Below are positions 2,035-62,646 of a stretch of DNA of 64,000 nucleotides, in pieces; the first letter of the stretch is position 1, and each line of letters starts with the position of its first letter. The position numbers were made by a program, and so were the translations under genes. Origin of the DNA: a bacterium (lineage in GTDB: Bacteria > CLD3 > SB21). The DNA lies in assembly GCA_008933615.1 (NCBI GenBank), contig WBUR01000003.1, forward strand, positions 16,340 through 80,339, given 5' to 3'. A model generated the notes under the pieces. The model made no database searches and was not told the DNA's origin. It saw nothing but the letters and a program-made list of their open reading frames with translations.

Positions 2035-2544
2035 ATGGCAGAAAAAATTGAAAATAATCCGACGCCAGAAAAACTGAAATCCAAATTCGGTTCGGACGTA
2101 CTGAAAACAGAGGTATTCCGTAATCAGCACGCAATTGTCGTTAAGCGCGAACGTATTCTGGATATAATGAAATTTCTGAAAGACGATGCGGAACTCGCGT
2201 ATGATTTCCTTGCGGATCTGACAGCGGTTGATTATCTCAAAATGGAAGTAAGCCCGCGCTTTCAGGTGGTTTACAATCTGCGTTCGATGAAACATAACCG
2301 GCGTGTGCGGATCAAAGTTCCCGTTCCAGAAAATGACTGTAAGATTGAAAGTGTGAGTGAATTATGGAAAACGGCAAATTGGCTGGAACGCGAAGTGTAT
2401 GAAATGTACGGGATCACTTTTGAAAATCATCCCGACCTGAGAAAACTCCTGATGCCCGAATCGTATGAATATTTTCCGCTACGCAAGGATTATCCTCTGC
2501 GCGGAAAAGGAGAAAGAGACGCCGTTCTGCCGGAAGGCTCTTAG
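2035..2544 (+). CDS. nuoC: NADH-quinone oxidoreductase subunit C (30 kDa subunit)
   Basis: 169 aa with a conserved NuoC core (ERE.YEMYGI.F.HPDLR.LL). Its position is between nuoA and nuoD. Confidence 0.85.
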   Translation: MAEKIENNPTPEKLKSKFGSDVLKTEVFRNQHAIVVKRERILDIMKFLKDDAELAYDFLADLTAVDYLKMEVSPRFQVVYNLRSMKHNRRVRIKVPVPENDCKIESVSELWKTANWLEREVYEMYGITFENHPDLRKLLMPESYEYFPLRKDYPLRGKGERDAVLPEGS

Positions 2545-2633
2545 GAATGTTGAATTTTTAATCGAGATTTCTGAATTAGAAATTTTTTGAGTGTTCAGTA
2601 ACGAGAACACATTAATAATAAAGGATTGACAAC

Positions 2634-3941
2634 ATGGAAGTCGATCGTTCAGAGGCTATAGAAGAATTTACAGTATCAACGTCCGAGGAATTGAAAGCGA
2701 AAGTTACAGGACGCAACAAGAAATTTTTGATCGGAACGGATGATGAGGAGTCGATCGAAGCCTGGAAGAAATCGGACACGATGTTTCTTAATTTCGGTCC
2801 GCAGCATCCTGCAACCCACGGCACGCTGCGCATGTTACTGGAACTCTCCGGCGAAAAAGTGGTCAAGCTCGATCCCCGTCCGGGTTATCTCCACACCGGA
2901 TTTGAAAAATTAGCTGAGCATCACACGTTCAATCAGTTTATTGCGGTCACCGACCGGATGAATTATCTCTCTCCGTTATCCAATAACGTTGGTTTTGCCT
3001 GCGCCGCCGAAGAATTACTCGGCATAAAAATTCCACCGCGCGCCCAGTATATCCGCGTGATACAGGCCGAACTCTCACGTATCGCCGATCATCTTGTCAA
3101 TATCGGCACGCACGCGCTCGATCTCGGTGCGTTCACTGTGTTTCTTTACGGATTCAGGCAGCGCGAATTCATTTACGATCTTTTTGAAGTATCGACCGGT
3201 TCACGTCTCACCACAAGCTATACCCGAATCGGCGGCGTTATGCGCGATTTTCCCGAAGGCCACGAGGAACAGATAGCCGGGTTCTGTAAACAATTTGATA
3301 TCGTGTACGGAGAGATCGAAGGATTACTCAATCATAACAAAATTTTTCAAAACCGTACTCAGGGAATCGGAAAGATCAACGCACAGGACGCGATCAACTA
3401 CGGCATGACCGGTCCTTGCCTGCGCGCGAGCGGTGTTCCGTACGATATTCGTAAGGACGAACCGTATCTTAATTACGACCAATTGGATTTTGACGTGCCG
3501 GTTGGTACGGAAGGCGACGTATTCGAGCGGTATCTTGTTCGTATGGAAGAAATGAGACAAAGCATCCGCATCATCGAGCAATGCCTTGCGCAAATGCAAA
3601 AAGGTCCGGTAAAGGTGGATGATCATACGATCGCCCTTCCGGACAAAAGCAAAGTGTACGGCAGCATCGAAGGATTGATTCATCATTTTAAACTGATTAT
3701 GGACCATCACGGAATTGATATGCCGAAAGGCGAGATCTATCACGCGACGGAAGCGCCCAACGGCGAGCTGGGCTGGTTTATCGTCAGTAACGGCGAAGGC
3801 GTACCTTACAAAGTTCATGTGCGCGGGCCGTCGTTTGTTCATTTTTCTATGATGCCGAAATTGTCAGAAGGCGGGATGGTCAGCGACGGCGTGGCTATTT
3901 TGGGAAGTCTGAACGTGATCGCCGGAGAGTGCGACAGATAA
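2634..3941 (+). CDS. nuoD: NADH-quinone oxidoreductase subunit D (49 kDa subunit)
   Basis: NFGPQHPATHGTLRM motif and a NiFe-hydrogenase large-subunit-like fold signature. There is an N-terminal extension of about 45 aa; an alternative start is at 2781. Confidence 0.9.
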   Translation: MEVDRSEAIEEFTVSTSEELKAKVTGRNKKFLIGTDDEESIEAWKKSDTMFLNFGPQHPATHGTLRMLLELSGEKVVKLDPRPGYLHTGFEKLAEHHTFNQFIAVTDRMNYLSPLSNNVGFACAAEELLGIKIPPRAQYIRVIQAELSRIADHLVNIGTHALDLGAFTVFLYGFRQREFIYDLFEVSTGSRLTTSYTRIGGVMRDFPEGHEEQIAGFCKQFDIVYGEIEGLLNHNKIFQNRTQGIGKINAQDAINYGMTGPCLRASGVPYDIRKDEPYLNYDQLDFDVPVGTEGDVFERYLVRMEEMRQSIRIIEQCLAQMQKGPVKVDDHTIALPDKSKVYGSIEGLIHHFKLIMDHHGIDMPKGEIYHATEAPNGELGWFIVSNGEGVPYKVHVRGPSFVHFSMMPKLSEGGMVSDGVAILGSLNVIAGECDR

Positions 3942-4456
3942 TTTTTTACAAACCCATTTTCTTAAGGTATAGTATGGCGTTAGAATTTTCTCCAGAAAAG
4001 AAAAAAGAAGTTGAGTGGACCCTTACACGGTACCCGAATACGCAGGCGGCTATGCTGCCCGTTCTGCATATCGCGCAATATCAATTCGGCTGCATCTCAC
4101 ATGAAGTGATGGAACTCGTGGCGAAGACGCTTGACCTTCCGGTTAGCCGCGTGCAGGACGTGGTTACTTTTTATACGATGTTTCACGAAAAACCGGTGGG
4201 AAAATTTCATATCCAGGTTTGTCACACGTTGTCGTGCGCCATTCGCGGCGGAAGTCAGGTTGTGGACTATTTGGAAAATAAATGCGGCGTAAAATGTAAT
4301 GACGGCATTTCAAAGGATGGAAAATTTTCGATCACGAAAGTCGAATGCCTGGGTTCCTGCGGCACGGCGCCCATGATGCAGGTAAATGACGATTATTTTG
4401 AGAATCTGTCCAAAGAAAAGATCGACCAATTGGTTAATAAGTGGAAAAGTGAATAG
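3929..4456 (+). CDS. nuoE: NADH-quinone oxidoreductase subunit E (24 kDa, [2Fe-2S])
   Basis: Thioredoxin-like 2Fe-2S Cys pattern (CHTLSC ... CLGSCGTAP). It overlaps the end of nuoD by 13 nt. Confidence 0.85.
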   Translation: MRQIIFYKPIFLRYSMALEFSPEKKKEVEWTLTRYPNTQAAMLPVLHIAQYQFGCISHEVMELVAKTLDLPVSRVQDVVTFYTMFHEKPVGKFHIQVCHTLSCAIRGGSQVVDYLENKCGVKCNDGISKDGKFSITKVECLGSCGTAPMMQVNDDYFENLSKEKIDQLVNKWKSE

Positions 4457-4535
4457 TGCAGCCACAGAGTGCACAGAGGTTTTGAAATTCGTTTTTAGCT
4501 CTCAGTGATCTCTGCGGTAAAAAAAGGTATAAGGA

Positions 4536-5837
4536 ATGGAAAAAGTTTTAACGAAAATGGTGGGTGTTGAGAACTCACAGAACATTGACGTTTATCTAAA
4601 ACACGGCGGTTATCAGGCATTACCGAAAGCGCTGAAAATGACTCCCGACGAACTGATTCAGATGATGAAAGATTCCGGCGTGCGTGGGCGCGGGGGCGCA
4701 GGATTTCCTACGGGGATGAAATGGAGCTTTTTGCCTAAAGACAATCCGAAGCCGAGATACCTTTTGTGTAATGCGGACGAATCGGAACCGGGAACATTCA
4801 AGGACCGCGTACTGATGGAAGACGATCCGCATCAGGTCATCGAAGGATTGATTATTTCTTCGTTTGCTATCCAGGCGCATACCTGCTACATCTACATTCG
4901 TGGTGAATATGTGACCGGGGCTAAGATATTACATAAGGCTATCAATGAAGCGTATGAAAAAGGATACCTCGGAAAAAATATTTTAGGCAGCGGATTTGAA
5001 CTTGATATTACCGTTCATCGCGGCGCCGGCGCTTATATCTGCGGTGAAGAAACCGGATTGATCGAGTCGCTGGAAGGCAAACGCGGATGGCCGCGTATCA
5101 AGCCTCCGTTTCCGGCAGTGTATGGCGTATTCGGATGCCCCACGATCGTGAATAACGTTGAGACGCTGGTGACGCCGATCCATATCATCAACCGCGGCGT
5201 GCAGTGGTGGAAAGATAACGAACCGAAACTGTACTGCATGAGCGGACATCTCACGCGTCCGGGCACGTACGAAGCGAAGATCGGCACCAATTTGATGGAG
5301 TTGATCAACGATCACTGCGGTGGAATTCCCAACGGAAGAAAATTAAAAGCCGTTATTCCCGGCGGTTCGTCCGTTCCCGTGCTGCGCGCTGAGGAATGCG
5401 ACGTGGCGATGGATTTTGACGCGCTCGCTAAAGCCGGATCGGCTTTGGGTTCCGCCGGATGCATGGTAATGGATGATACCACCTGCATGGTCAATGCGCT
5501 GTGGAATCTGATGAAATTTTATTCTCATGAATCCTGCGGCCAGTGCACGCCGTGCCGTGAAGGCACGCATTGGCTGGAAATGATCTGCGGACGAATTGAA
5601 ACGGGCAGAGGCCGGATGGAAGATCTGGAACTGATGCTTGAGACGGCGAATAACATTGCCGGACGTACGATTTGTCCATTAGGCGATGCTGCGGCGTGGC
5701 CGGTAGCAGGATTGCCGGACAAGAATAAAGGCGGCGATCTTAACGGCCAGAGTTTTATAAATAAGTTCCGCGAGGAATTTGAATATCACATAACCAACAA
5801 AAAATGTAAAGTAACGATTCCGCATGAGTGGAATTGA
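4536..5837 (+). CDS. nuoF: NADH-quinone oxidoreductase subunit F (51 kDa; FMN/NADH-binding, [4Fe-4S])
   Basis: GRGGAGFPTG FMN-site motif and ESCGQCTPCREG 4Fe-4S motif. Confidence 0.9.
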   Translation: MEKVLTKMVGVENSQNIDVYLKHGGYQALPKALKMTPDELIQMMKDSGVRGRGGAGFPTGMKWSFLPKDNPKPRYLLCNADESEPGTFKDRVLMEDDPHQVIEGLIISSFAIQAHTCYIYIRGEYVTGAKILHKAINEAYEKGYLGKNILGSGFELDITVHRGAGAYICGEETGLIESLEGKRGWPRIKPPFPAVYGVFGCPTIVNNVETLVTPIHIINRGVQWWKDNEPKLYCMSGHLTRPGTYEAKIGTNLMELINDHCGGIPNGRKLKAVIPGGSSVPVLRAEECDVAMDFDALAKAGSALGSAGCMVMDDTTCMVNALWNLMKFYSHESCGQCTPCREGTHWLEMICGRIETGRGRMEDLELMLETANNIAGRTICPLGDAAAWPVAGLPDKNKGGDLNGQSFINKFREEFEYHITNKKCKVTIPHEWN

Positions 5838-55665: not shown

Positions 55666-56445
55666 TTATTCGATCTTCAGAACCGGCTCCAAAACATCCA
55701 GCCTTTTATCATCCTTATAATAGACCCGTTCCAGAAATAATCCCGATGGCGGTGCAGTGAATCGTGCCGGAATATCGGATTTCGACTGGAGAAATTGTTG
55801 AATGTCTTTTGACGTCAATTTTCCGCGGCCCACTTCCGCCATAACACCTACCATTTGCCGGACCATCTTCCATAAAAAATGCGATCCAACGATTCGAATG
55901 AGGATTAGAGCTCCGCTTTCTTTGATCTGAATACTCTCGATCATCACTTTGGAAGATTTGCTTTCCATTTCGTCCGGGGCAAAAGATTGAAAATTTTTCA
56001 GCCCGACAAATAATTTTGCCGCATCCTGCATTTTCTGAATATTCAATTCATCCTTGATCCACCAAACAAACCGTTTTCCGAACGCGCTCCGGCGGCGCGA
56101 GATCTGATACAAGTAACTGCGCGCAACAGCGTCATGCCGCGCGTGAAACTTGGTATCTGCTTTTTCGATGTCCAGAATATGAATATCGGCGGGCAGGGCA
56201 TCGTTGATCTGAATTCGCAGTTTAAACGGTTCGAGTTTTGTCACCGCCTCCAGATGTGCCACTTGCCTGAGCGCATGCACACCGCCATCCGTACGTCCGG
56301 AAGCGTACAATTCGAACTCGTTCGTATTCAACACCTTCTCGACCGCAGTGATAATTTCGCCCTGAACGGTGCGCGCTTCTTTTTGCGCCTGCCAGCCGCT
56401 GTAACGGGTTCCCTCGTATTCGATAATTAGTTTGTAACGGGACAT
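55666..56445 (-). CDS. truA: tRNA pseudouridine(38-40) synthase
   Basis: N-terminal YKLIIEYEGTRYSGWQ and catalytic-Asp region GRTDGGVHA. 259 aa. Confidence 0.85.
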   Translation of the reverse strand: MSRYKLIIEYEGTRYSGWQAQKEARTVQGEIITAVEKVLNTNEFELYASGRTDGGVHALRQVAHLEAVTKLEPFKLRIQINDALPADIHILDIEKADTKFHARHDAVARSYLYQISRRRSAFGKRFVWWIKDELNIQKMQDAAKLFVGLKNFQSFAPDEMESKSSKVMIESIQIKESGALILIRIVGSHFLWKMVRQMVGVMAEVGRGKLTSKDIQQFLQSKSDIPARFTAPPSGLFLERVYYKDDKRLDVLEPVLKIE

Positions 56446-56475
56446 GAGATCAACCTTACGTGCAACGCACGCTTT

Positions 56476-56946
56476 TTAATGAAGCAAAATCTTTTTTATT
56501 ATTCTCTGCAAAAACTTCGGTATTCCCGGCAGATAATTATCAAATGGTTTAATCGAGTAAACAGCCGGTCGTTCGTCGCGGTCATGTTTCATTCCCGGAC
56601 AACCCGAATCATAATACAATTGTCCGTCAATCCGATACCACGGATATTCCCGGCAGCCCTGCGGCCGCGCTGAGTAGCACGAACAGGCTTTATCTTTTAA
56701 TAGCGCACAGGCGAAACCGTTTGATTTTAGTTTAATACTCTTGCCGGAACGAACGAGCGATGGCTCGCCGATTTTTAAAGCATCTTCTTCCGTTACAACC
56801 ACACCGCCGCCCAGAACATCACAACATAGTCCGCATTCCCCGCCGATACAATCCAGCCGGATCGGCGCATCGGCTTTTCGCAGATGTAGTAATCCTTTTT
56901 TACGCGCGTAGAAAATAATCCGGATCAGGCGAAACACGGAACTCAC
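56476..56946 (-). CDS. YkgJ/UPF0153-type CxxCxxCC putative Fe-S/zinc-binding protein
   Basis: CIGGECGLCC motif plus further Cys (CALL..KACSCY..CREY..CPG). GTG start overlapping the upstream transporter stop by 4 nt. Confidence 0.6.
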   Translation of the reverse strand: MSSVFRLIRIIFYARKKGLLHLRKADAPIRLDCIGGECGLCCDVLGGGVVVTEEDALKIGEPSLVRSGKSIKLKSNGFACALLKDKACSCYSARPQGCREYPWYRIDGQLYYDSGCPGMKHDRDERPAVYSIKPFDNYLPGIPKFLQRIIKKILLH

Positions 56947-58424
56947 GTATTCTCCTTTTGTTGTAAGAGAAATCCGATTCCCAGCATGAGCGATGAGACC
57001 AGAAGGCTTGACACCGGCGCGAGAAATACAATTTCGTCATTGATAATATACTTGCCATAACCCGCGGTTGCCCATCCTGCAATAAATCCTGACGCAATAC
57101 TCACGGATGCCCAGCGGGATAGCTTCTGCAGTTTGGTCTTATCGCCAAATAAGGCGGCCATGATGGAAGGGAATAAGCCCAACTGCGCTCCGTAGATCGC
57201 AAATACAAAATCGGCGATGGAAAAACCGATGGATGACAATATCACCACAACGCCCATAGACAACAAAGCAGCTGTGATTAAGATCAATCTTGAAATCCAG
57301 AGCTCTCTTGCGGAATCAATCCGCTCTTTTAGTTTTCTCCCTTGCGAAATCAGATCTTCATAAACCGTGTGCGATACGGCGATCAATTGTGTTGACGCGG
57401 TGGACAGCATCGCGCCGTATAAGCCGAGCACAACAAAGAACAATGCCATCATCGGAATAAGTCCATTCATTCCGCCTATCGCGTTGAGCAGCGTCAAAAG
57501 AGGATTTACCCGTTCCATCGGCACGATGACCATAAATGCGAGACATGCCGTGACAACAAACAATCCCCAGCTCAGCGCAGAGATGAAGACGCTTGAAAAT
57601 AGTCCGCGGTATACCGTTTCCGGTTTCTGCGATGCGGCTATACGCTGCCAGACGCTCATGTCGGAAATAAAAGTTGGAACATTGATCACCCATACGCCCA
57701 GAAGAAAAGCGGGCAGTTCTTCACGCCAGGTAAATTGTTTTATTTCATCCGGAATGTTGGCAAGATTGACCGCCCAGCCTTCATGGCCGCGCACGAAATA
57801 AAAATAAAAACCAAGCAGAGCGGCGAGAAACAGCCAGATGGAAACCATTTGAATGCGGTCCGTCACGATCACGGCGCGAAATCCGCCGTAGGACGTGTAT
57901 GCGAGTCCTATCAACGCCAGAACAGAAACCGCCAGCCAAAGCGGAATTTCAGGAATCAGGCTGGCAAGAAATCGGGAACCGACGGTTAGTTCCACGGCAA
58001 ATGCGCCGAGAAAACCAAGGCTTGTGCAGGCGGCGCCGATCATGTACAAGGAACGGGAATTGAATTCCTGTCCCAAGAACTCATGCAGCGTCGGGCGATG
58101 GTCGTAAGCTGACAACTTTGTCCAGATTCGTTTTGCGACAAAACGTACGCAGAAAAGTCCGATCGACGTTGTGATCACCGTCCAGAAGAGCCACACGCCG
58201 AGTTCCGGCGCCAATTCAAAAAAGGCAAGAACGACCGTCGCCAGGGAAATGCTGGTAGCAACGGTGCTTGAGGAAAATTCAGCTGAATTTCTTATTTCAG
58301 CCTGATGTCCGCCGGTTAAAGGAATGAGATCGGCCAGGTTGCGGTTTTTCCTTCCGAGCAAGAAACCGACAAATAAATAAACGGAAAAAGCGCAGAGAAG
58401 CGCCGCTGCAACAGTTACCGTCAT
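56943..58424 (-). CDS. sodium:solute symporter (SSS family, PutP/PanF-like)
   Basis: 493 aa with 13 predicted TM helices and an SSS-type architecture. Start ATG overlaps the stop of the CDPS-like gene (ATGA). Confidence 0.75.
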   Translation of the reverse strand: MTVTVAAALLCAFSVYLFVGFLLGRKNRNLADLIPLTGGHQAEIRNSAEFSSSTVATSISLATVVLAFFELAPELGVWLFWTVITTSIGLFCVRFVAKRIWTKLSAYDHRPTLHEFLGQEFNSRSLYMIGAACTSLGFLGAFAVELTVGSRFLASLIPEIPLWLAVSVLALIGLAYTSYGGFRAVIVTDRIQMVSIWLFLAALLGFYFYFVRGHEGWAVNLANIPDEIKQFTWREELPAFLLGVWVINVPTFISDMSVWQRIAASQKPETVYRGLFSSVFISALSWGLFVVTACLAFMVIVPMERVNPLLTLLNAIGGMNGLIPMMALFFVVLGLYGAMLSTASTQLIAVSHTVYEDLISQGRKLKERIDSARELWISRLILITAALLSMGVVVILSSIGFSIADFVFAIYGAQLGLFPSIMAALFGDKTKLQKLSRWASVSIASGFIAGWATAGYGKYIINDEIVFLAPVSSLLVSSLMLGIGFLLQQKENT

Positions 58425-59152
58425 GATGGATTTTTGCTTTTTTTGGTGATGCGCAATTCGACGTTGATGCGCTGTTTCAATGCGGGAGGAATGTGCGGAA
58501 ATTTACCGGCGGCAATATCCACTAGTACGGGAATTTCGGCGCCGGGATATACTTCCACCGCCCAGCCGTTTTCGACAAGAACGCTGAATACCGCTATCTC
58601 TTCAAGCAGATATTGGGTTGATAAGGCTATGGCTGTTTTTTTGTCTACAACGGGGCTTTTTTTATTTTTCATCTGGCGAGAAATAAATTCAGTCGATGTT
58701 TTATCGATCGATTCCCGAAATTCAAAACTGGATACAAATAGTTCATCCAGGATCTTTTTCGCCTTATGGTATTCCGGCGAGTCGAGAAACGACTTCCAGC
58801 GTGTCACACGAAATTTTTCTTTAGGAAGTAGCGACAGATATTTTTCGGACTCTTTTAAAAAAGCATCGCCCATGCGCAGCGATTCAATTTCAGCTTCTTT
58901 GGCCTGTCGGTTGTAGAAAATATGTTCGTTATAACGCTGAAGATAATCGCCTACTACAATCAGGCATTCGTCAAAATGACGTGAAATCCATTCGAGCAAT
59001 ACCTGGAACGATTCGCCGCGGAACTGCGGATTGCCAATGCTGATACCGAGATAACATCGGCGGTGGAGAAACAGTTCTTTCTGCGTGATCGCCGGCGCGA
59101 TACTCTCGATGCGTGTGGTGTATTCGGTTAATAGATCTTTATTTGTTGTCAA
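58421..59152 (-). CDS. cyclodipeptide synthase (CDPS, AlbC-like tRNA-dependent)
   Basis: 243 aa. LGISIGNPQF (G-x-S with Ser nucleophile), LLEW...F...V.D, EKFRV, SPEY and YLLEE motifs, and a Y-P pair in VEVYPG, all collinear with the AlbC family as I recall it. Start codon is TTG. Confidence 0.7.
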   Translation of the reverse strand: MTTNKDLLTEYTTRIESIAPAITQKELFLHRRCYLGISIGNPQFRGESFQVLLEWISRHFDECLIVVGDYLQRYNEHIFYNRQAKEAEIESLRMGDAFLKESEKYLSLLPKEKFRVTRWKSFLDSPEYHKAKKILDELFVSSFEFRESIDKTSTEFISRQMKNKKSPVVDKKTAIALSTQYLLEEIAVFSVLVENGWAVEVYPGAEIPVLVDIAAGKFPHIPPALKQRINVELRITKKSKNPS

Positions 59153-60284
59153 GTTCGTTCCAGAGTTTTTCGATGTGTTTGAGTTTTTTCACGGTTTCGT
59201 TGTATGTAAAACTCGTGCCGTAGTGTACACGGTCTTCTTTGGCGTTCATCACGGAGTTATCCGCGAACGCCACCACGTTACCGCCGCGGAGTTTATAAAA
59301 CCAAAGATTATTCATCTCGACGGATTCGTGCAGCAGGATATCGTCAAACTGTTTGATCTGCGGATATCCCCATTTGATCTGGATCTTTTTCATCGCTTCG
59401 TTGAATCGAGGCAGGCGCTGTTCATATTTTTTGTGATTCTTTTCGAGGAAACGTTTGAAATTGGTTGTGAATTCCTTCAACACCTCTTTGCGATTGGGCG
59501 AAAGGTACATGATCTCCAGTTTTTCAAAATGTCCTTCCCATAAAAAGCTGTGATCGAAAAAATCAAAATTGGAATTATCCGTGAACATACGGTGGTCACG
59601 AATGGTGCCGACAATGTGCGTGATGCGCGACCGGTTTTTCTCTTCCCATTTCGCCAATTCATTGGGTGAAATGCGCGGGACGTAGCCTTGTAAATTTTCA
59701 AGCAGGTCTAACGAAAGATCGAGGTAAAACGGCGGCGTGGAACTCAACAATGATTTAACGTGGCTGTCGAGCAGTCCTTCCTGGTCAATAACCGTCGGCC
59801 GCGGCGTGGTAAGAAAGTTTTCCAGCTCGTTGTCAATATGCCGCGCTTTGATCTCGTCGCCGACGACGCTGGACTCTTCCGATTTGATAATCGGCCAAAG
59901 CGGATCAAATTTTTCAAAGAGATCATGTAGTTCCGCGTCGGCCTCGCCGAGCAGTTTGGACATGGCGCGCATGTCATCAATGGAATCGATGCCGGATTCC
60001 ATCACCTGAATCGCAACCATGATCTTGCAAAGGGGATCGAGTTCGATTCTTTCAAAACTCTTGATTACCAGCACGGCTTTTCCGGGCTGCAGAACGGCCG
60101 AGCCCGCTTCGACCATGCGGTAGGATGAACCGCCTAAGCCTAATTTGGACGCAACTTCATCGGAAGAGAGTACCATAAAATTTCTCATCCGCTGCAAGAC
60201 TAATCCCAATGCCTGCATAAGCGGATTTTTGAAAACCCTCTTAAGAGCTTCCAATTCTTTAGCGGAGGTCTTTGATCGATTCAC
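59139..60284 (-). CDS. HTH (XRE-like) domain protein with large uncharacterised C-terminal domain; first gene of the CDPS operon
   Basis: N-terminal LSSDEVASKLGLGGSSYRMVEAG helix-turn-helix. About 300 further residues with no motif I recognise. GTG start. Its last 14 nt overlap the CDPS start. Confidence 0.45.
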   Translation of the reverse strand: MNRSKTSAKELEALKRVFKNPLMQALGLVLQRMRNFMVLSSDEVASKLGLGGSSYRMVEAGSAVLQPGKAVLVIKSFERIELDPLCKIMVAIQVMESGIDSIDDMRAMSKLLGEADAELHDLFEKFDPLWPIIKSEESSVVGDEIKARHIDNELENFLTTPRPTVIDQEGLLDSHVKSLLSSTPPFYLDLSLDLLENLQGYVPRISPNELAKWEEKNRSRITHIVGTIRDHRMFTDNSNFDFFDHSFLWEGHFEKLEIMYLSPNRKEVLKEFTTNFKRFLEKNHKKYEQRLPRFNEAMKKIQIKWGYPQIKQFDDILLHESVEMNNLWFYKLRGGNVVAFADNSVMNAKEDRVHYGTSFTYNETVKKLKHIEKLWNELDNK

Positions 60285-60386
60285 GATGACTTTTAAAGTT
60301 ATATTTAATAATGATTTAGTTTTACTATTTTAACGCTTTAACATAGTCAAATATAACAAAAAAGTCAAAAAAATAAAACATCAATA

Positions 60387-60414
60387 TTGACTTAAATAAA
60401 AGTTGCCGTATATT
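60387..60414 (+). promoter_or_regulatory. sigma70-like promoter candidate (TTGACT-16 nt-TATATT) for the downstream TPR/GWxTD gene
   Basis: TTGACT at about 60387-60392 and TATATT at about 60409-60414, roughly 67 nt upstream of ATG 60481. It lies in an AT-rich region between divergent genes. Confidence 0.35.
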
Positions 60415-60480
60415 GAAAGGCAAGTATTACGGAATCACATCATCTACCCAAAATGTAGCGGTCCGCAAAATCGGGTTCGT

Positions 60481-62646
60481 ATGAAAAATTTTTTCCCATT
60501 TTTATTTTTTGTATCCCTTTGCTTCCAACTATCTTCCGTATTTTCGCAATCCCCAAAACCTCTCGATCTTAAAGACAGCATTAAAATTCTCAGGAAAGAA
60601 CTAAAAAGTAATCCCGACGGCTCGCGCCTGCGTTTCGAACTGGCGAAATTATATCTTTCTGACGACGAATACGGCGGGATCATCGATCTATACGAAAAAA
60701 AATTCGATAAGAAAGAATGCACTGCCGCAGAATATAAAATGTACGCCGTTGCGCGGATCAGAAATTATGAAAAAATGGTTATCACCGGCAAAATACTATC
60801 CAAAATACCGATCGCATCCATGTTTCATTCCGATTTGTCCGACGCGGGAAAAGCCTTGGACCTAGTTCTGCAACAGGACTCTGCAGACCTTGAGGCTAAA
60901 TTCTTTAAAGGCGTTTTACGCTGCGTAAACGGAAAAGAAACTGAAGCGGAAAATATATTTCGGGAGATCATTACAGCCGATCCTTATTTTAAGACGTACA
61001 TTTTTTATGATGCGTGGCTGGAACTTGGAGCGCTTTTAAGAAAACAGGAACGATGGAAAGAAGCCAATGAGTTGTTTGAGAAACGAGCCGCTCTCGACAG
61101 CGCAGATACGTGGCCGATGATCCAATTGGCCTTGTCTTACATAGACGTAAAAAAAGATGAAGGCGCCACCCGCGCATTTTACCGGGGATTACGATCCGTT
61201 TCAGATCAAAAGAATATCGAGCAATTGTACTTAGAAGCATTACCGATCGCTACGAAAGAAGAAATTAATGTATGGAAAGTACTGGCCGCTCCCGCGGATC
61301 AACTCCAATTTCTACAGACATTCTGGAAAAGCCGCGATCCAAATCTCGTCGATGCTGTGAATGAACGATTGGTCGAACATTACCGCCGTGTGCAGCATGC
61401 GCGCACATATTACAAAAAAATTCGCTCGCCGTACTTCGATGACCGCGGATTAGTTTACATCAAAATGGGCCCGCCTGACAAATACTTTACAGGAGTCAAT
61501 GACGCGTCCTGGGTGTACGAAAGCACGAATGAACATTTCGATTTTGTTGATGTAGGGCATGGCACGTACGAGATCCGGCCTTTATCTGATGCGGTACCTC
61601 TTGCAGGGAGCGCGCAGGAGCGGTTCGCTGCCTTGTACAATCTTCTGGATGCGCGTAGAAATTACCATACCGACTACGAACGCCTGGCCAACCGGATGAA
61701 AGGCGCCGAAAATAGTATTTCAGTTGAGCGTAACGCACAGCAGGTGCTTGGCGTTTATCAAAGCAATCTGAATATAATCGAACAACAATTGAATACCATT
61801 ACACTGAGTAAGCCTGTAAACGAAAAATTCGATTTCAACACCGGCGCACAGCCCTTGCAAATCAACGCAAACTTCGCCTCTTTCAAAAGTACCAATTCTT
61901 CTCGCCTGGACTTTTATTATATGATTCCCGTTCAGCGGCTGAAATTCATGCCGGTCGAGAACGTTTATGATAAATCTTTTCTCACCGTGAAAGCGAAAAT
62001 ATTCGACACTACGTATCAGGAAATTAATTATCTCGAAAGAGACTACCGTATCACCAGCGTGGATTCCACGTTGCAATCGGAATATTACATAATTGACGAA
62101 CTGCGCAGCCTGCTTAAGCCCGGTAATTATCTGCTGGCACTAGACATTCGTAACAATCTGAATGAAAAGATAGGAATTTACAAAATCAAGCTTCGCGTCC
62201 GAGATTATTCTTCCAGACAACTCACGATCAGCGACATTGAACTATCCTCCTCGGTGAGTCAGCAGGTAATCATTGACAAGTTCATCAAACCCGATACGAA
62301 ATTGCGCGTCGTTCCAAACCCCGCGGGTTTGAGCCCAAAATCGAAACCGCTGACCATTTATTATGAAATCTATAATCTGACGTTGGATAATGAAGGGATG
62401 AGTTCGTACGAAGTATCTTATACGATAGACACCAAATCCAAGAAGAATTTTTTTGCAAAACTCTTTTCAGGCAACTCGAGTATCAGTTCTACGACGCTCA
62501 AGACCGGCGCATCAACTCTTGAAAGAGAATACATTGCGTTCGATATCAGCGAATTGCCGGAAGGGAAAGCTTTCCTAAGCGTGAAAGTAACCGATCAATT
62601 AAGCAATAAATCAGCAGTATCCTCAATCGAACTGAAAATAAAATAA
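60481..62646 (+). CDS. secreted TPR-repeat protein with GWxTD-like domain
   Basis: Signal peptide MKNFFPFLFFVSLCFQLSSVFSQ (the track ORF starts at 60403). TPR-like N-terminal half. Segment DRGLVYIKMGPPDKYF...ASWVYE matches the GWxTD domain pattern as I recall it. Confidence 0.5.
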   Translation: MKNFFPFLFFVSLCFQLSSVFSQSPKPLDLKDSIKILRKELKSNPDGSRLRFELAKLYLSDDEYGGIIDLYEKKFDKKECTAAEYKMYAVARIRNYEKMVITGKILSKIPIASMFHSDLSDAGKALDLVLQQDSADLEAKFFKGVLRCVNGKETEAENIFREIITADPYFKTYIFYDAWLELGALLRKQERWKEANELFEKRAALDSADTWPMIQLALSYIDVKKDEGATRAFYRGLRSVSDQKNIEQLYLEALPIATKEEINVWKVLAAPADQLQFLQTFWKSRDPNLVDAVNERLVEHYRRVQHARTYYKKIRSPYFDDRGLVYIKMGPPDKYFTGVNDASWVYESTNEHFDFVDVGHGTYEIRPLSDAVPLAGSAQERFAALYNLLDARRNYHTDYERLANRMKGAENSISVERNAQQVLGVYQSNLNIIEQQLNTITLSKPVNEKFDFNTGAQPLQINANFASFKSTNSSRLDFYYMIPVQRLKFMPVENVYDKSFLTVKAKIFDTTYQEINYLERDYRITSVDSTLQSEYYIIDELRSLLKPGNYLLALDIRNNLNEKIGIYKIKLRVRDYSSRQLTISDIELSSSVSQQVIIDKFIKPDTKLRVVPNPAGLSPKSKPLTIYYEIYNLTLDNEGMSSYEVSYTIDTKSKKNFFAKLFSGNSSISSTTLKTGASTLEREYIAFDISELPEGKAFLSVKVTDQLSNKSAVSSIELKIK

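Follow-up and report, generated by a model that had tools for sequence, protein, structure and literature searches.

The locus raises the question of what a cyclodipeptide synthase (CDPS) does in an operon whose other members are a regulator-like protein (X), an SSF transporter and a CxxCxxCC protein. Five minus-strand ORFs were found in the ORF listing of the window, i.e., the whole 64-kb stretch of DNA that was analysed, and by their coordinates three junctions overlap, by 14, 4, and 4 nt, and the fourth is a 30-nt gap. This bears out the packed layout given in a preliminary description of the region, and the non-actinobacterial lineage proposed there agrees with the contig label, phylum CLD3. 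The features are as follows.

60340..60393, minus strand: promoter and candidate operator from the promoter scan, with TTGACT/TATGTT boxes and an inverted repeat
59139-60284, minus strand: gene X, predicted one-component transcription regulator, 381 aa, GTG start
58421-59152, minus strand: CDPS of the XYP subfamily, 243 aa, TTG start (PF16715, TIGR04539)
56943-58424, minus strand: divergent SSF transporter, predicted importer, 493 aa (PF00474)
56476-56946, minus strand: YkgJ/CxxCxxCC protein, putative [4Fe-4S], 156 aa, GTG start (PF03692)
55666-56445, minus strand: truA, housekeeping tRNA pseudouridine(38-40) synthase, 259 aa (TIGR00071)

The functional unit is best explained as a four-gene operon, i.e., X, CDPS, SSF, and CxxCxxCC, with one promoter at approximately 60368-60340. 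The fifth gene product was recognized as TruA by the TIGR00071 equivalog (204.7 bits, cut-off 142.85). The gene was adjacent in only 4/39 cassettes, all of one CLD3 sub-lineage, and was absent at all Planctomycetota and distant loci. It is a lineage-specific downstream passenger and not a conserved cassette member. The earlier suggestion of a functional role for truA in the operon was therefore rejected on conservation, as the cassettes next to truA were those of close CLD3 relatives only. The 30-nt gap between the CxxCxxCC gene and truA holds a 5-bp hairpin with no U-tract on the coding strand, so the hairpin is not a terminator on that strand. The gene is probably co-transcribed here by read-through, which would be incidental.

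The other four genes behave differently from truA in relatives. X, CDPS, and SSF were found together, in the same order and on the same strand, in 39/41 X-anchored species genomes, and 37 of these also carried the CxxCxxCC gene. Such a recurrence in independently found genomes puts the arrangement far beyond chance. The expected conservation of gene order thus held for the X-CDPS-SSF(-CxxCxxCC) part and failed for the truA part. In distant sub-clades, the triad was present in 6/6 loci found via distant X proteins, none of which had the CxxCxxCC gene (0/6), and L069, located via its CDPS, adds another distant triad. Three distant triads adjoin a relaxase and a type IV (T4SS) coupling protein, and one of them also an integrase. 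The four cassette genes showed co-evolution (r = 0.69-0.90), and their junctions are tight or overlapping in many lineages. Co-inheritance of X, CDPS, SSF, and CxxCxxCC as a unit across phyla is strongly supported. All carriers, approximately 40 bacterial species, are uncultured.

In the cassette flanks, no cyclodipeptide oxidase, P450, methyltransferase, prenyltransferase, or exporter was detected. The partner set differs from the described CDPS cluster types, as had been supposed. The albonoursin, pulcherriminic acid, mycocyclosin, bicyclomycin, and drimentine clusters are also compact operons built around a CDPS. However, the companions of the CDPS in those clusters are oxidases, P450s, methyltransferases or prenyltransferases, and exporters of the MFS or ABC type. 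Here it stands with a YkgJ-type protein, a predicted SSS importer and a regulator with XRE and putative PLD-like domains. Literature searches found no published description of the X-CDPS-SSF-CxxCxxCC cassette, and the CDPS surveys PMC5767969, PMC5816076, and PMC2922099 do not mention such a gene set.

Other readings of the cassette's surroundings were discarded. PADLOC defence models gave no match for X, CDPS, SSF, or the CxxCxxCC protein, and with zero matches among the four proteins the locus was not considered a defence system. Two X proteins had no tblastn match in PLSDB plasmids, and two alignments found no relatives in IMG/VR viral contigs; plasmid or phage carriage was rejected on these empty searches. 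An unknown protein upstream of the Planctomycetota cassettes was compared with the CLD3 GWxTD protein, of which it might have been a split homologue, but the two showed no similarity.

The second gene, described earlier as a CDPS, was confirmed by profile search (PF16715, 45.5 bits, cut-off 27; TIGR04539, 85 bits, cut-off 45). The nearest solved relatives in a PDB sequence search were BcmA (9j61, E 1.6e-22) and Fdum-CDPS (5ocd, E 4e-19). The catalytic residues S38, Y181, E185, and Y202, i.e., Ser37, Tyr178, Glu182, and Tyr202 in AlbC numbering, were invariant in 71/71 clade members, and the CDPSs of the distant triads keep them with one exception, Y181F in L070. The XYP signature is present as Y202-P203, with N41 at the X position, and this signature and the top PDB matches place the enzyme in the XYP subfamily. 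The catalytic Ser/Tyr/Glu/Tyr set and the Tyr-Pro signature are common to this CDPS, BcmA, and Fdum-CDPS, which by sequence belong to the same fold family, but the bcm cluster carries 2OG oxygenases and P450s and the partners here are entirely different. The enzyme is, with strong support from these conserved residues, predicted to be equipped to join the aminoacyl groups of two aminoacyl-tRNAs into a cyclodipeptide, through the ping-pong mechanism usual for CDPSs.

The P1 pocket residues of the CDPS are invariant or almost so in the 71 clade members. G36, G68, V188, and F189 resemble BcmA, and W119, V188, and E200 resemble Fdum-CDPS. In the parts of the literature available to us, the pocket combination Y G V G W V F E had no counterpart among the described CDPS specificity groups, so, as far as those parts go, the product cannot be predicted from the pocket residues. 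From sub-clade to sub-clade the P1 specificity residues vary, and X diverges too.

The SSF transporter matched PF00474 (38.7 bits, cut-off 22.8), and its hydropathy profile shows approximately 12-13 hydrophobic segments, i.e., about 13 TM. The generic SSS superfamily model TIGR00813 gave 83 bits, under its cut-off of 184, and the transporter is therefore a divergent family member. In the NCBIfam search, only this generic sss superfamily and a chance-level Csx15 match (E 0.28) were obtained, with no PutP-specific equivalog. The transporter had been called PutP-like, a specificity that these matches do not support. A sequence search of PDB gave a weak match to vSGLT (3dh4) and nothing useful. 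It is the most conserved gene of the cassette, with a median pairwise identity of 0.60. The characterised SSS members (TC 2.A.21) are Na+-coupled uptake systems, and we know of no SSS-family exporter. For this protein, import is the predicted direction of transport, and the C-terminus is predicted to lie in the cytoplasm.

The profile check of 56476-56946 upheld the CxxCxxCC assignment (PF03692, 37.1 bits, cut-off 23), whereas the PDB sequence search gave nothing useful. Eight Cys residues are invariant, i.e., C33, C38, C41, C42, C80, C88, C98, and C116, which form a CX4CX2CC cluster and four more Cys. In 10 loci/genomes, the SSF transporter carries the CxxCxxCC domain as a C-terminal fusion. 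This fusion indicates that the protein works with the transporter as a cytoplasmic partner, and it leaves the proposal of a free redox tailoring enzyme unsupported. Among Cys-cluster proteins of this type, only FliB has been characterised. It is the flagellin lysine methylase, a membrane-associated [4Fe-4S] SAM-dependent enzyme (PMC8598068). FliB binds its [4Fe-4S] cluster by a CX4CX3CC motif and likewise has eight conserved Cys (PMC8598068), but it is much larger and acts on flagellin, whereas the protein here is a 156-aa minimal domain tied to a transporter, with a putative Fe-S cluster. By analogy, FliB-like Fe-S chemistry is possible.

Protein X has, towards its N-terminus, a helical domain (approximately 20-160) that contains an XRE-type HTH, and a disordered linker (163-179) connects this to the C-terminal domain (approximately 180-381). 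The HTH is sub-threshold by sequence in Pfam (HTH_31, 14.8 bits, cut-off 27), but it was confirmed by structure and has the five helices of the lambda-cI/XRE type. The C-terminal domain is alpha/beta and putative PLD-like, without the catalytic His: no HxK(x)4D (HKD) motif occurs in X, and alignments A1 and A2 contain zero invariant His in this domain. X had been taken as a regulator or a tailoring enzyme. The regulator stands, on the XRE HTH and the putative PLD-like domain, and the enzyme was rejected, as both the HKD motif and an invariant His are missing. The non-catalytic PLD-like domain of the sugar-responsive TrmB family (TrmB 3qph/2f5t, TrmBL2 5box) binds small effectors, and the putative PLD-like domain of X is of that kind. 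However, the TrmB HTH is a winged helix whereas that of X is of XRE/lambda-cI type, and no sequence similarity exists between X and TrmB. By this analogy, X is predicted to fit a ligand-binding regulator resembling the TrmB-type effector-binding regulators.

The start of X is uncertain, i.e., the public gene call is 359 aa and the ORF from the GTG at 60284 is 381 aa. Because N20/P21 are nearly invariant, the start must precede residue 20, which is compatible with GTG 60284. The X family comprises 321 representatives at 50% identity, and linkage to a CDPS is seen almost throughout. Two solo X copies without a synthase were found (L033 and L059). The broad alignment A2 was too divergent for a DNA scan, and a metagenome scan with the sub-clade alignment A4 gave 2 loci only.

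Ahead of X, the promoter scan gave a -35 box TTGACT (60368-60363), a 17-nt spacer and a -10 box TATGTT (60345-60340). A 7-nt inverted repeat, AAGTCAA-N18-TTGACTT, lies at 60362-60393 and overlaps the promoter. The motif TTGACTTTTTTG-N17-TAnnTT was invariant in 10/10 CLD3 loci, and neither the exact promoter motif nor the inverted repeat has a second copy in the 64-kb window. An analogous conserved block of approximately 45 nt precedes X in approximately 32-34 Planctomycetota loci. Against the seed, 28-44 of 46 positions of the block matched in 32 loci, where the shuffled maximum was 28. We infer that regulator X binds the operator at this promoter.

The best reading of the cassette, to which we give a probability of roughly 40%, is a circuit in which a cyclodipeptide is produced, reimported and sensed. 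The CDPS would make a cyclodipeptide, which would exit the cell. The Na+-coupled SSF transporter would re-import it, and the Fe-S partner may gate the transporter or chemically process the cargo. Cytoplasmic X would then bind the cyclodipeptide and change operator occupancy at the overlapping operon promoter. The outcome would be an autoregulated loop, i.e., a cyclodipeptide autoinducer circuit, with a logic like that of peptide systems that rely on an importer and a receptor in the cytoplasm. In the triads on conjugative elements the same loop may time element functions, and the solo X copies may be receivers only. For this loop we infer the product, the transport direction, the ligand of X and the operator binding.

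Several observations point to this circuit. The CDPS is intact, and the cassette is conserved both in the X-anchored genomes and, with L069, in the distant triads. The genes co-evolve and their junctions are tight or overlapping, and a conserved non-coding block covers a promoter whose CLD3 motif is unique in the window. SSS members take up solutes, the CxxCxxCC domain is fused to the transporter and the flanks are without tailoring enzymes or an exporter. Solo X copies and triads beside the relaxase and T4SS coupling protein also agree with a signal. A P1 pocket that differs by sub-clade while X diverges is expected of diversifying signal-receptor pairs. The proposal that bacteria use cyclodipeptides as signals is 25 years old. 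The field of diketopiperazine (DKP) signalling is without a dedicated synthase-receptor pair, and for cyclo(Phe-Pro) in Vibrio neither how it is made nor how it is sensed is clear (PMC6622552); this missing pair was counted as support for the circuit.

Other points count against it. The transporter is the most conserved protein while the CDPS pocket varies, which argues against a cargo-specific importer, unless the common diketopiperazine ring is recognised. A pure signalling model leaves the role of the Fe-S protein unaccounted for, and in the searches as run the cassette was on no PLSDB plasmid or IMG/VR viral contig. Ordinary natural-product clusters, too, often have a pathway-specific regulator as the first gene of the biosynthetic operon. 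Such a conventional secondary-metabolite cluster is the main rival, although rather unlikely. It would have the CDPS make the scaffold, the CxxCxxCC protein tailor it by FliB-like SAM-dependent methyl transfer or membrane redox chemistry, the SSF transporter export it and X act as the pathway-specific regulator. The intact CDPS and the frequency of cluster-situated regulators suit this rival, as does the precedent of FliB for a membrane-associated [4Fe-4S] SAM-dependent enzyme in the Cys-motif family (PMC8598068), and a last tailoring step fused to the transporter would fit coupled modification and export. But an export role is at odds with the Na+-driven importers among characterised SSS members, the usual CDPS tailoring families are missing, and the presumed tailoring protein is dispensable in the X-anchored distant triads. 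Solo X copies and the placement on conjugative elements are likewise unexpected for an antibiotic cluster, though ICE cargo genes occur.

The conserved transporter and variable CDPS pockets would also be compatible with import of another solute, an amino-acid substrate or other, that is sensed by X, while the cyclodipeptide stays intracellular, e.g., for stress protection or storage. Amino acids, vitamins, sugars, and osmolytes are typical SSS cargo, and database records place some carriers in saline anaerobic sediments. This reading is nevertheless improbable, as a CDPS draws aminoacyl-tRNAs from the general pool and does not obviously need a dedicated importer, the transporter matches NCBIfam only through the generic sss superfamily, the Csx15 match being at chance level, and the strict three-gene linkage over very distant lineages argues for a single common small molecule. 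Translational coupling of importer and synthase could mean instead that a CDPS-like enzyme releases no diketopiperazine and aminoacylates, with one or two groups from tRNA, a small molecule that the transporter imports. Such tRNA-dependent transfer onto small molecules is known in other enzyme families, but all residues of the cyclising mechanism are invariant, Y202 included, and no CDPS-fold enzyme with such activity was found in the literature consulted, which makes it a very improbable explanation. Slightly less probable still is that the product is a diketopiperazine that binds metal and returns to the cell in metal-bound form, with the metal freed through reduction by the Fe-S domain of the transporter. 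Its precedent is pulcherriminic acid, an iron-chelating cyclodipeptide derivative (PMC7731078), and a redox-type Cys-cluster domain fused to an importer would suit it. The flanks, however, hold no N-oxygenase, P450, or hydroxylase for chelating groups, no metal-responsive regulator signature was seen, and the CxxCxxCC protein is missing from the distant triads.

Compared with known signalling systems, the proposed produce–reimport–sense circuit resembles RRNPP-type systems (PlcR/PapR, ComR/ComS, PrgX) and LuxI/LuxR, in which a signal gene lies beside a cytoplasmic HTH receptor, as is proposed for the cassette. Importer uptake, autoregulation, presence on conjugative elements and receptor-only solos are also matched in the proposed logic. 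However, an RRNPP receptor has TPR and LuxR an autoinducer-binding domain, whereas X has neither and carries the putative PLD-like domain instead. RRNPP and LuxI signals are ribosomal or acyl-ACP/SAM-derived, whereas the cassette signal would come from a tRNA-dependent synthase. The RRNPP importer is Opp, whereas the cassette has a dedicated SSS transporter, and the function of the cassette is a proposed one. With a putative PLD-like receptor domain and a CDPS as synthase, the cassette does not belong to RRNPP/LuxR quorum sensing, and the likeness is in logic only.

The cassette offers a concrete candidate for the pair missing in DKP signalling, i.e., one synthase, one transporter, a putative receptor and a candidate promoter/operator, in approximately 40 species and on conjugative elements. 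A wider proposal is tentative and open to considerable doubt. It would make the cassette the first self-contained cyclodipeptide communication system, composed of a synthase, a Na+-coupled re-importer with an optional Fe-S partner and a new receptor class of XRE HTH and PLD-like domain. Such a system would be widespread in uncultured Planctomycetota, CLD3, and Bacteroidota with many signal-receptor variants, recruited by conjugative elements for timing and accompanied by receptor-only eavesdroppers. Even if signalling is wrong, the locus defines a large uncharacterised regulator family that is nearly always CDPS-linked, and it gives the YkgJ-type Cys-cluster protein its first functional context, as a transporter partner. 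It also extends CDPS biology to phyla that are absent from current surveys.

The five minus-strand ORFs of the preliminary description were reproduced by ORF listing with exactly the same coordinates, i.e., with overlaps of 14, 4, and 4 nt and a 30-nt gap before the last gene. The features in the window are as follows.

59139-60284 (-), gene 1 (gene X), 381-aa regulator-like protein
58421-59152 (-), gene 2, cyclodipeptide synthase (CDPS)
56943-58424 (-), gene 3, sodium:solute symporter family (SSF) protein (PF00474, 38.7 bits)
56476-56946 (-), gene 4, CxxCxxCC protein (PF03692, 37.1 bits)
55666-56445 (-), gene 5, TruA (TIGR00071, 204.7 bits)
60368-60340 (-), cassette promoter, found by promoter scan
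60362-60393, 7-nt inverted repeat AAGTCAA-N18-TTGACTT, flanking the promoter

The CDPS assignment proposed for gene 2 was borne out by PF16715 (45.5 bits) and TIGR04539 (85 bits), both above the curated cut-offs, and the CxxCxxCC assignment of gene 4 by its Pfam match. For gene 3, NCBIfam gave only the generic SSS superfamily model, with a score below its cut-off. The HTH matches of gene 1 were all sub-threshold in profile searches. The window corresponds to an ENA metagenome contig assigned to phylum CLD3. The G+C content at 56001-60000, i.e., the cassette, was 0.47-0.49 against 0.39-0.43 in the immediate flanks, a mild hint of horizontal acquisition that is consistent with the patchy spread over phyla.

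In context look-ups, the order X (approximately 380 aa), CDPS, SSF, and CxxCxxCC was kept at CDPS identities of 86, 65, 62, 49, 45, and 43%. The proposed five-gene order thus held for these four genes, but truA was confined to the closest CLD3 relatives. Scanning the X alignment against GTDB species genomes gave 54 loci, all from MAGs or SAGs, of CLD3 (labelled 'uncultured Bacteroidota' or 'bacterium'), Planctomycetota (Phycisphaerae, Sedimentisphaerales, Anaerohalosphaeraceae, and 'Pirellulales'), and a few Cytophagales/Flammeovirgaceae. The cassette genes were scored with custom profiles in the 41 X-anchored loci having at least 2.9 kb of downstream sequence. X-CDPS-SSF was found in 39 and the CxxCxxCC gene in addition in 37. 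Pairwise identities of the four cassette proteins were correlated (r = 0.69-0.90, 39 complete loci), and the gene junctions overlapped or were very short in most lineages. The regulator-synthase-transporter unit is therefore firmly regarded as conserved and inherited together. In one Planctomycetota MAG (L013:4044-5137), the X gene was split into ORFs 4044-4412 and 4352-5137 with the other cassette genes intact; a frameshift, pseudogene formation, or an error in the assembly could explain this.

The truA gene, previously counted as an operon member, was adjacent in only 4/41 of these loci; it was rejected from the conserved unit and is considered a local passenger. The 30-nt gap contains a hairpin lacking a U-tract on the coding strand, so transcription from the cassette probably reads through into truA in the source genome. 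The cassette end of one truA-less CLD3 relative faces a convergent gene (L009:3915-4349, -) encoding a TrmO_N tRNA methyltransferase domain. This second tRNA-modification gene beside a CDPS cassette is probably a coincidence.

The nearest solved structures to gene 2 were the XYP-subfamily BcmA (9j61, E 1.6e-22) and Fdum-CDPS (5ocd, E 4e-19). An alignment of 82 homologues was used to map residues, with BcmA numbering (PMC11580168). Catalytic residues S38, Y181, E185, and Y202, together with P203 and N41, were invariant in 71/71 clade members, and the enzyme is securely a genuine CDPS. The P1 pocket (Y34, G36, V66, G68, W119, V188, F189, and E200) was invariant or nearly so, the exceptions being Y34 (F or gap in seven members) and V66 (I or L in 15). 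Some of its positions are BcmA-like and others Fdum-like, a combination matching none of the specificity groups described in the text consulted, so no product is predicted.

Profile searching against 1.84 billion representatives placed X in a family of 321 proteins, of which 249 reach E <= 1e-10 and nearly all are 350-420 aa long. The 36 close homologues were nearly all full length, some with PF01381. In the AF2 model (pLDDT 81), a disordered linker connects two domains; the sole multi-domain Foldseek match of the model was TrmBL2 (probability 0.75). Conserved residues of the C-terminal domain are W213, E214, F253, K300, and W328; no histidine is invariant among the aligned homologues, and the domain thus lacks the HKD catalytic motif. 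We read it as a putative non-catalytic effector-binding domain, and X as a predicted one-component regulator of TrmB-like architecture, differing in its XRE-type head.

Upstream of X, a block of approximately 45 nt, TTGACAaaTtaGyTTGcTgtTTTTTGCA-N8-TATAAT, was common to approximately 32-34 Planctomycetota loci. In 32 loci, 28-44 of 46 positions agreed with the seed; shuffled sequences reached 28 at most. The TTGAC/TTGC motifs of the block recur at roughly helical-turn spacing. In CLD3, TTGACTTTTTTG-N17-TAnnTT, i.e., the cassette promoter in the window, was invariant in 10/10 loci. This motif and the inverted repeat each occur once in the 64-kb window. Since conservation extends well past the hexamers although the proteins of these genomes are only 37-60% identical, the sequence indicates a putative regulatory site, a candidate promoter/operator that X may bind. 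In many Planctomycetota loci (e.g., L026, L027, and L040), a second short element, roughly AAGGACTTA, lies approximately 35-40 nt upstream of the block and could represent an additional binding site or the margin of an adjacent feature.

X-CDPS-SSF was found in the same order and strand in 7/7 distant-lineage loci examined, listed here.

L014 (via distant X protein), relaxase and T4SS coupling protein, L014:1-2407
L073 (via distant X protein), relaxase, T4SS coupling protein, and phage-type integrase, L073:9323-13092 and 1-903
L074 (via distant X protein), relaxase and T4SS coupling protein, L074:1-2650
L070 (via distant X protein), chromosomal
L071 (via X sub-clade alignment A4), chromosomal
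L072 (via X sub-clade alignment A4), ambiguous (AAA_25)
L069 (via its CDPS, 34% identical), near ImmA/IrrE-type repressor, CxxCxxCC also present

The coupling proteins are of TraG/TrwB type and directly beside the triads. Because of this adjoining machinery, including the L073 integrase, the triads of L014, L073, and L074 appear to be on integrative or conjugative elements. No match was obtained in PLSDB plasmids, searched by tblastn with two X proteins, or in IMG/VR, searched with two alignments. The distant CDPSs retain the catalytic Ser, Glu, and Tyr202; W119 (T/C/W) and E200 (N/D/Q/H/L) vary, which suggests sub-clades with different products. L069 holds the most divergent four-gene cassette, with a longer first gene (L069:5661-7004, 447 aa, faint HTH matches only). 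The nearby repressor (HTH_3 and Peptidase_M78) and a DUF3368 gene suggest a mobile-element context.

SSF and CxxCxxCC were fused as one ORF of approximately 655-676 aa in 10 loci (SSF approximately 1-505, CxxCxxCC approximately 505-665), and the SSF C-terminus is cytoplasmic by family topology and hydropathy profile. The Fe-S-type Cys-cluster protein is thus firmly a transporter partner. It has eight invariant cysteines, and its confident model (pLDDT 90) has no structural relative in PDB. As 0/6 X-anchored distant triads have the domain, it is dispensable in the wider family.

The cassette may encode a produce–reimport–sense loop (probability roughly 0.4), in which a cyclodipeptide made by the CDPS would be taken back up and sensed by the cassette's own regulator. 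The transporter family is, to our knowledge, uptake-only, and X, with its effector-type domain, comes first in the operon behind a conserved operator-like promoter. The loop is further favoured by pocket residues diversifying in step with the receptor, by recurrence of the triad on conjugative elements, where communication modules are common, and by solo X copies that would be receiver-only. Such copies occur in Cytophagales/Flammeovirgaceae MAGs (L033:2878-3999 and L059:6998-8117, the latter split into two reading frames), each preceded by a SnoaL_2-family gene; neither a CDPS nor an SSF gene occurs within 7 kb of them.

Two points count against the loop: conservation is higher in the transporter than in the synthase pocket, and the loop leaves the Fe-S partner without an obvious role. 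The main rival, a tailored and exported diketopiperazine, would give this partner the role of a FliB-like enzyme. FliB is a membrane-associated, SAM-dependent methylase whose CX4CX3CC motif, close to the CX4CX2CC here, binds a [4Fe-4S] cluster (PMC8598068). This rival is rated somewhat less likely than the loop. Neither a classical tailoring enzyme nor an exporter is present, which favours the loop. Import of a different solute by the transporter, aminoacyl transfer without cyclisation, and a metallophore cycle are lesser alternatives. In full-text literature searches, no CDPS was described with an SSS transporter, YkgJ-type protein, XRE/PLD-like regulator, Planctomycetota, or conjugative elements, in agreement with the initial view that this is not a described cluster. 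The cassette is a CDPS cluster whose widely conserved set of partners is undescribed, and it has a realistic chance of being a new type of signalling system.

A TPR-containing protein is encoded divergently upstream in both phyla (window 60403-62646, +; L011:3701-4876 and 2345-3490, both -). In six CLD3 loci it is a TPR and GWxTD-domain protein; in Planctomycetota, a TPR protein (32 loci) is followed by a protein of approximately 380 aa without Pfam match (22 loci), which shows no similarity to the GWxTD protein (BLASTP E 16). The upstream TPR gene could reflect lineage synteny or be an extra component.
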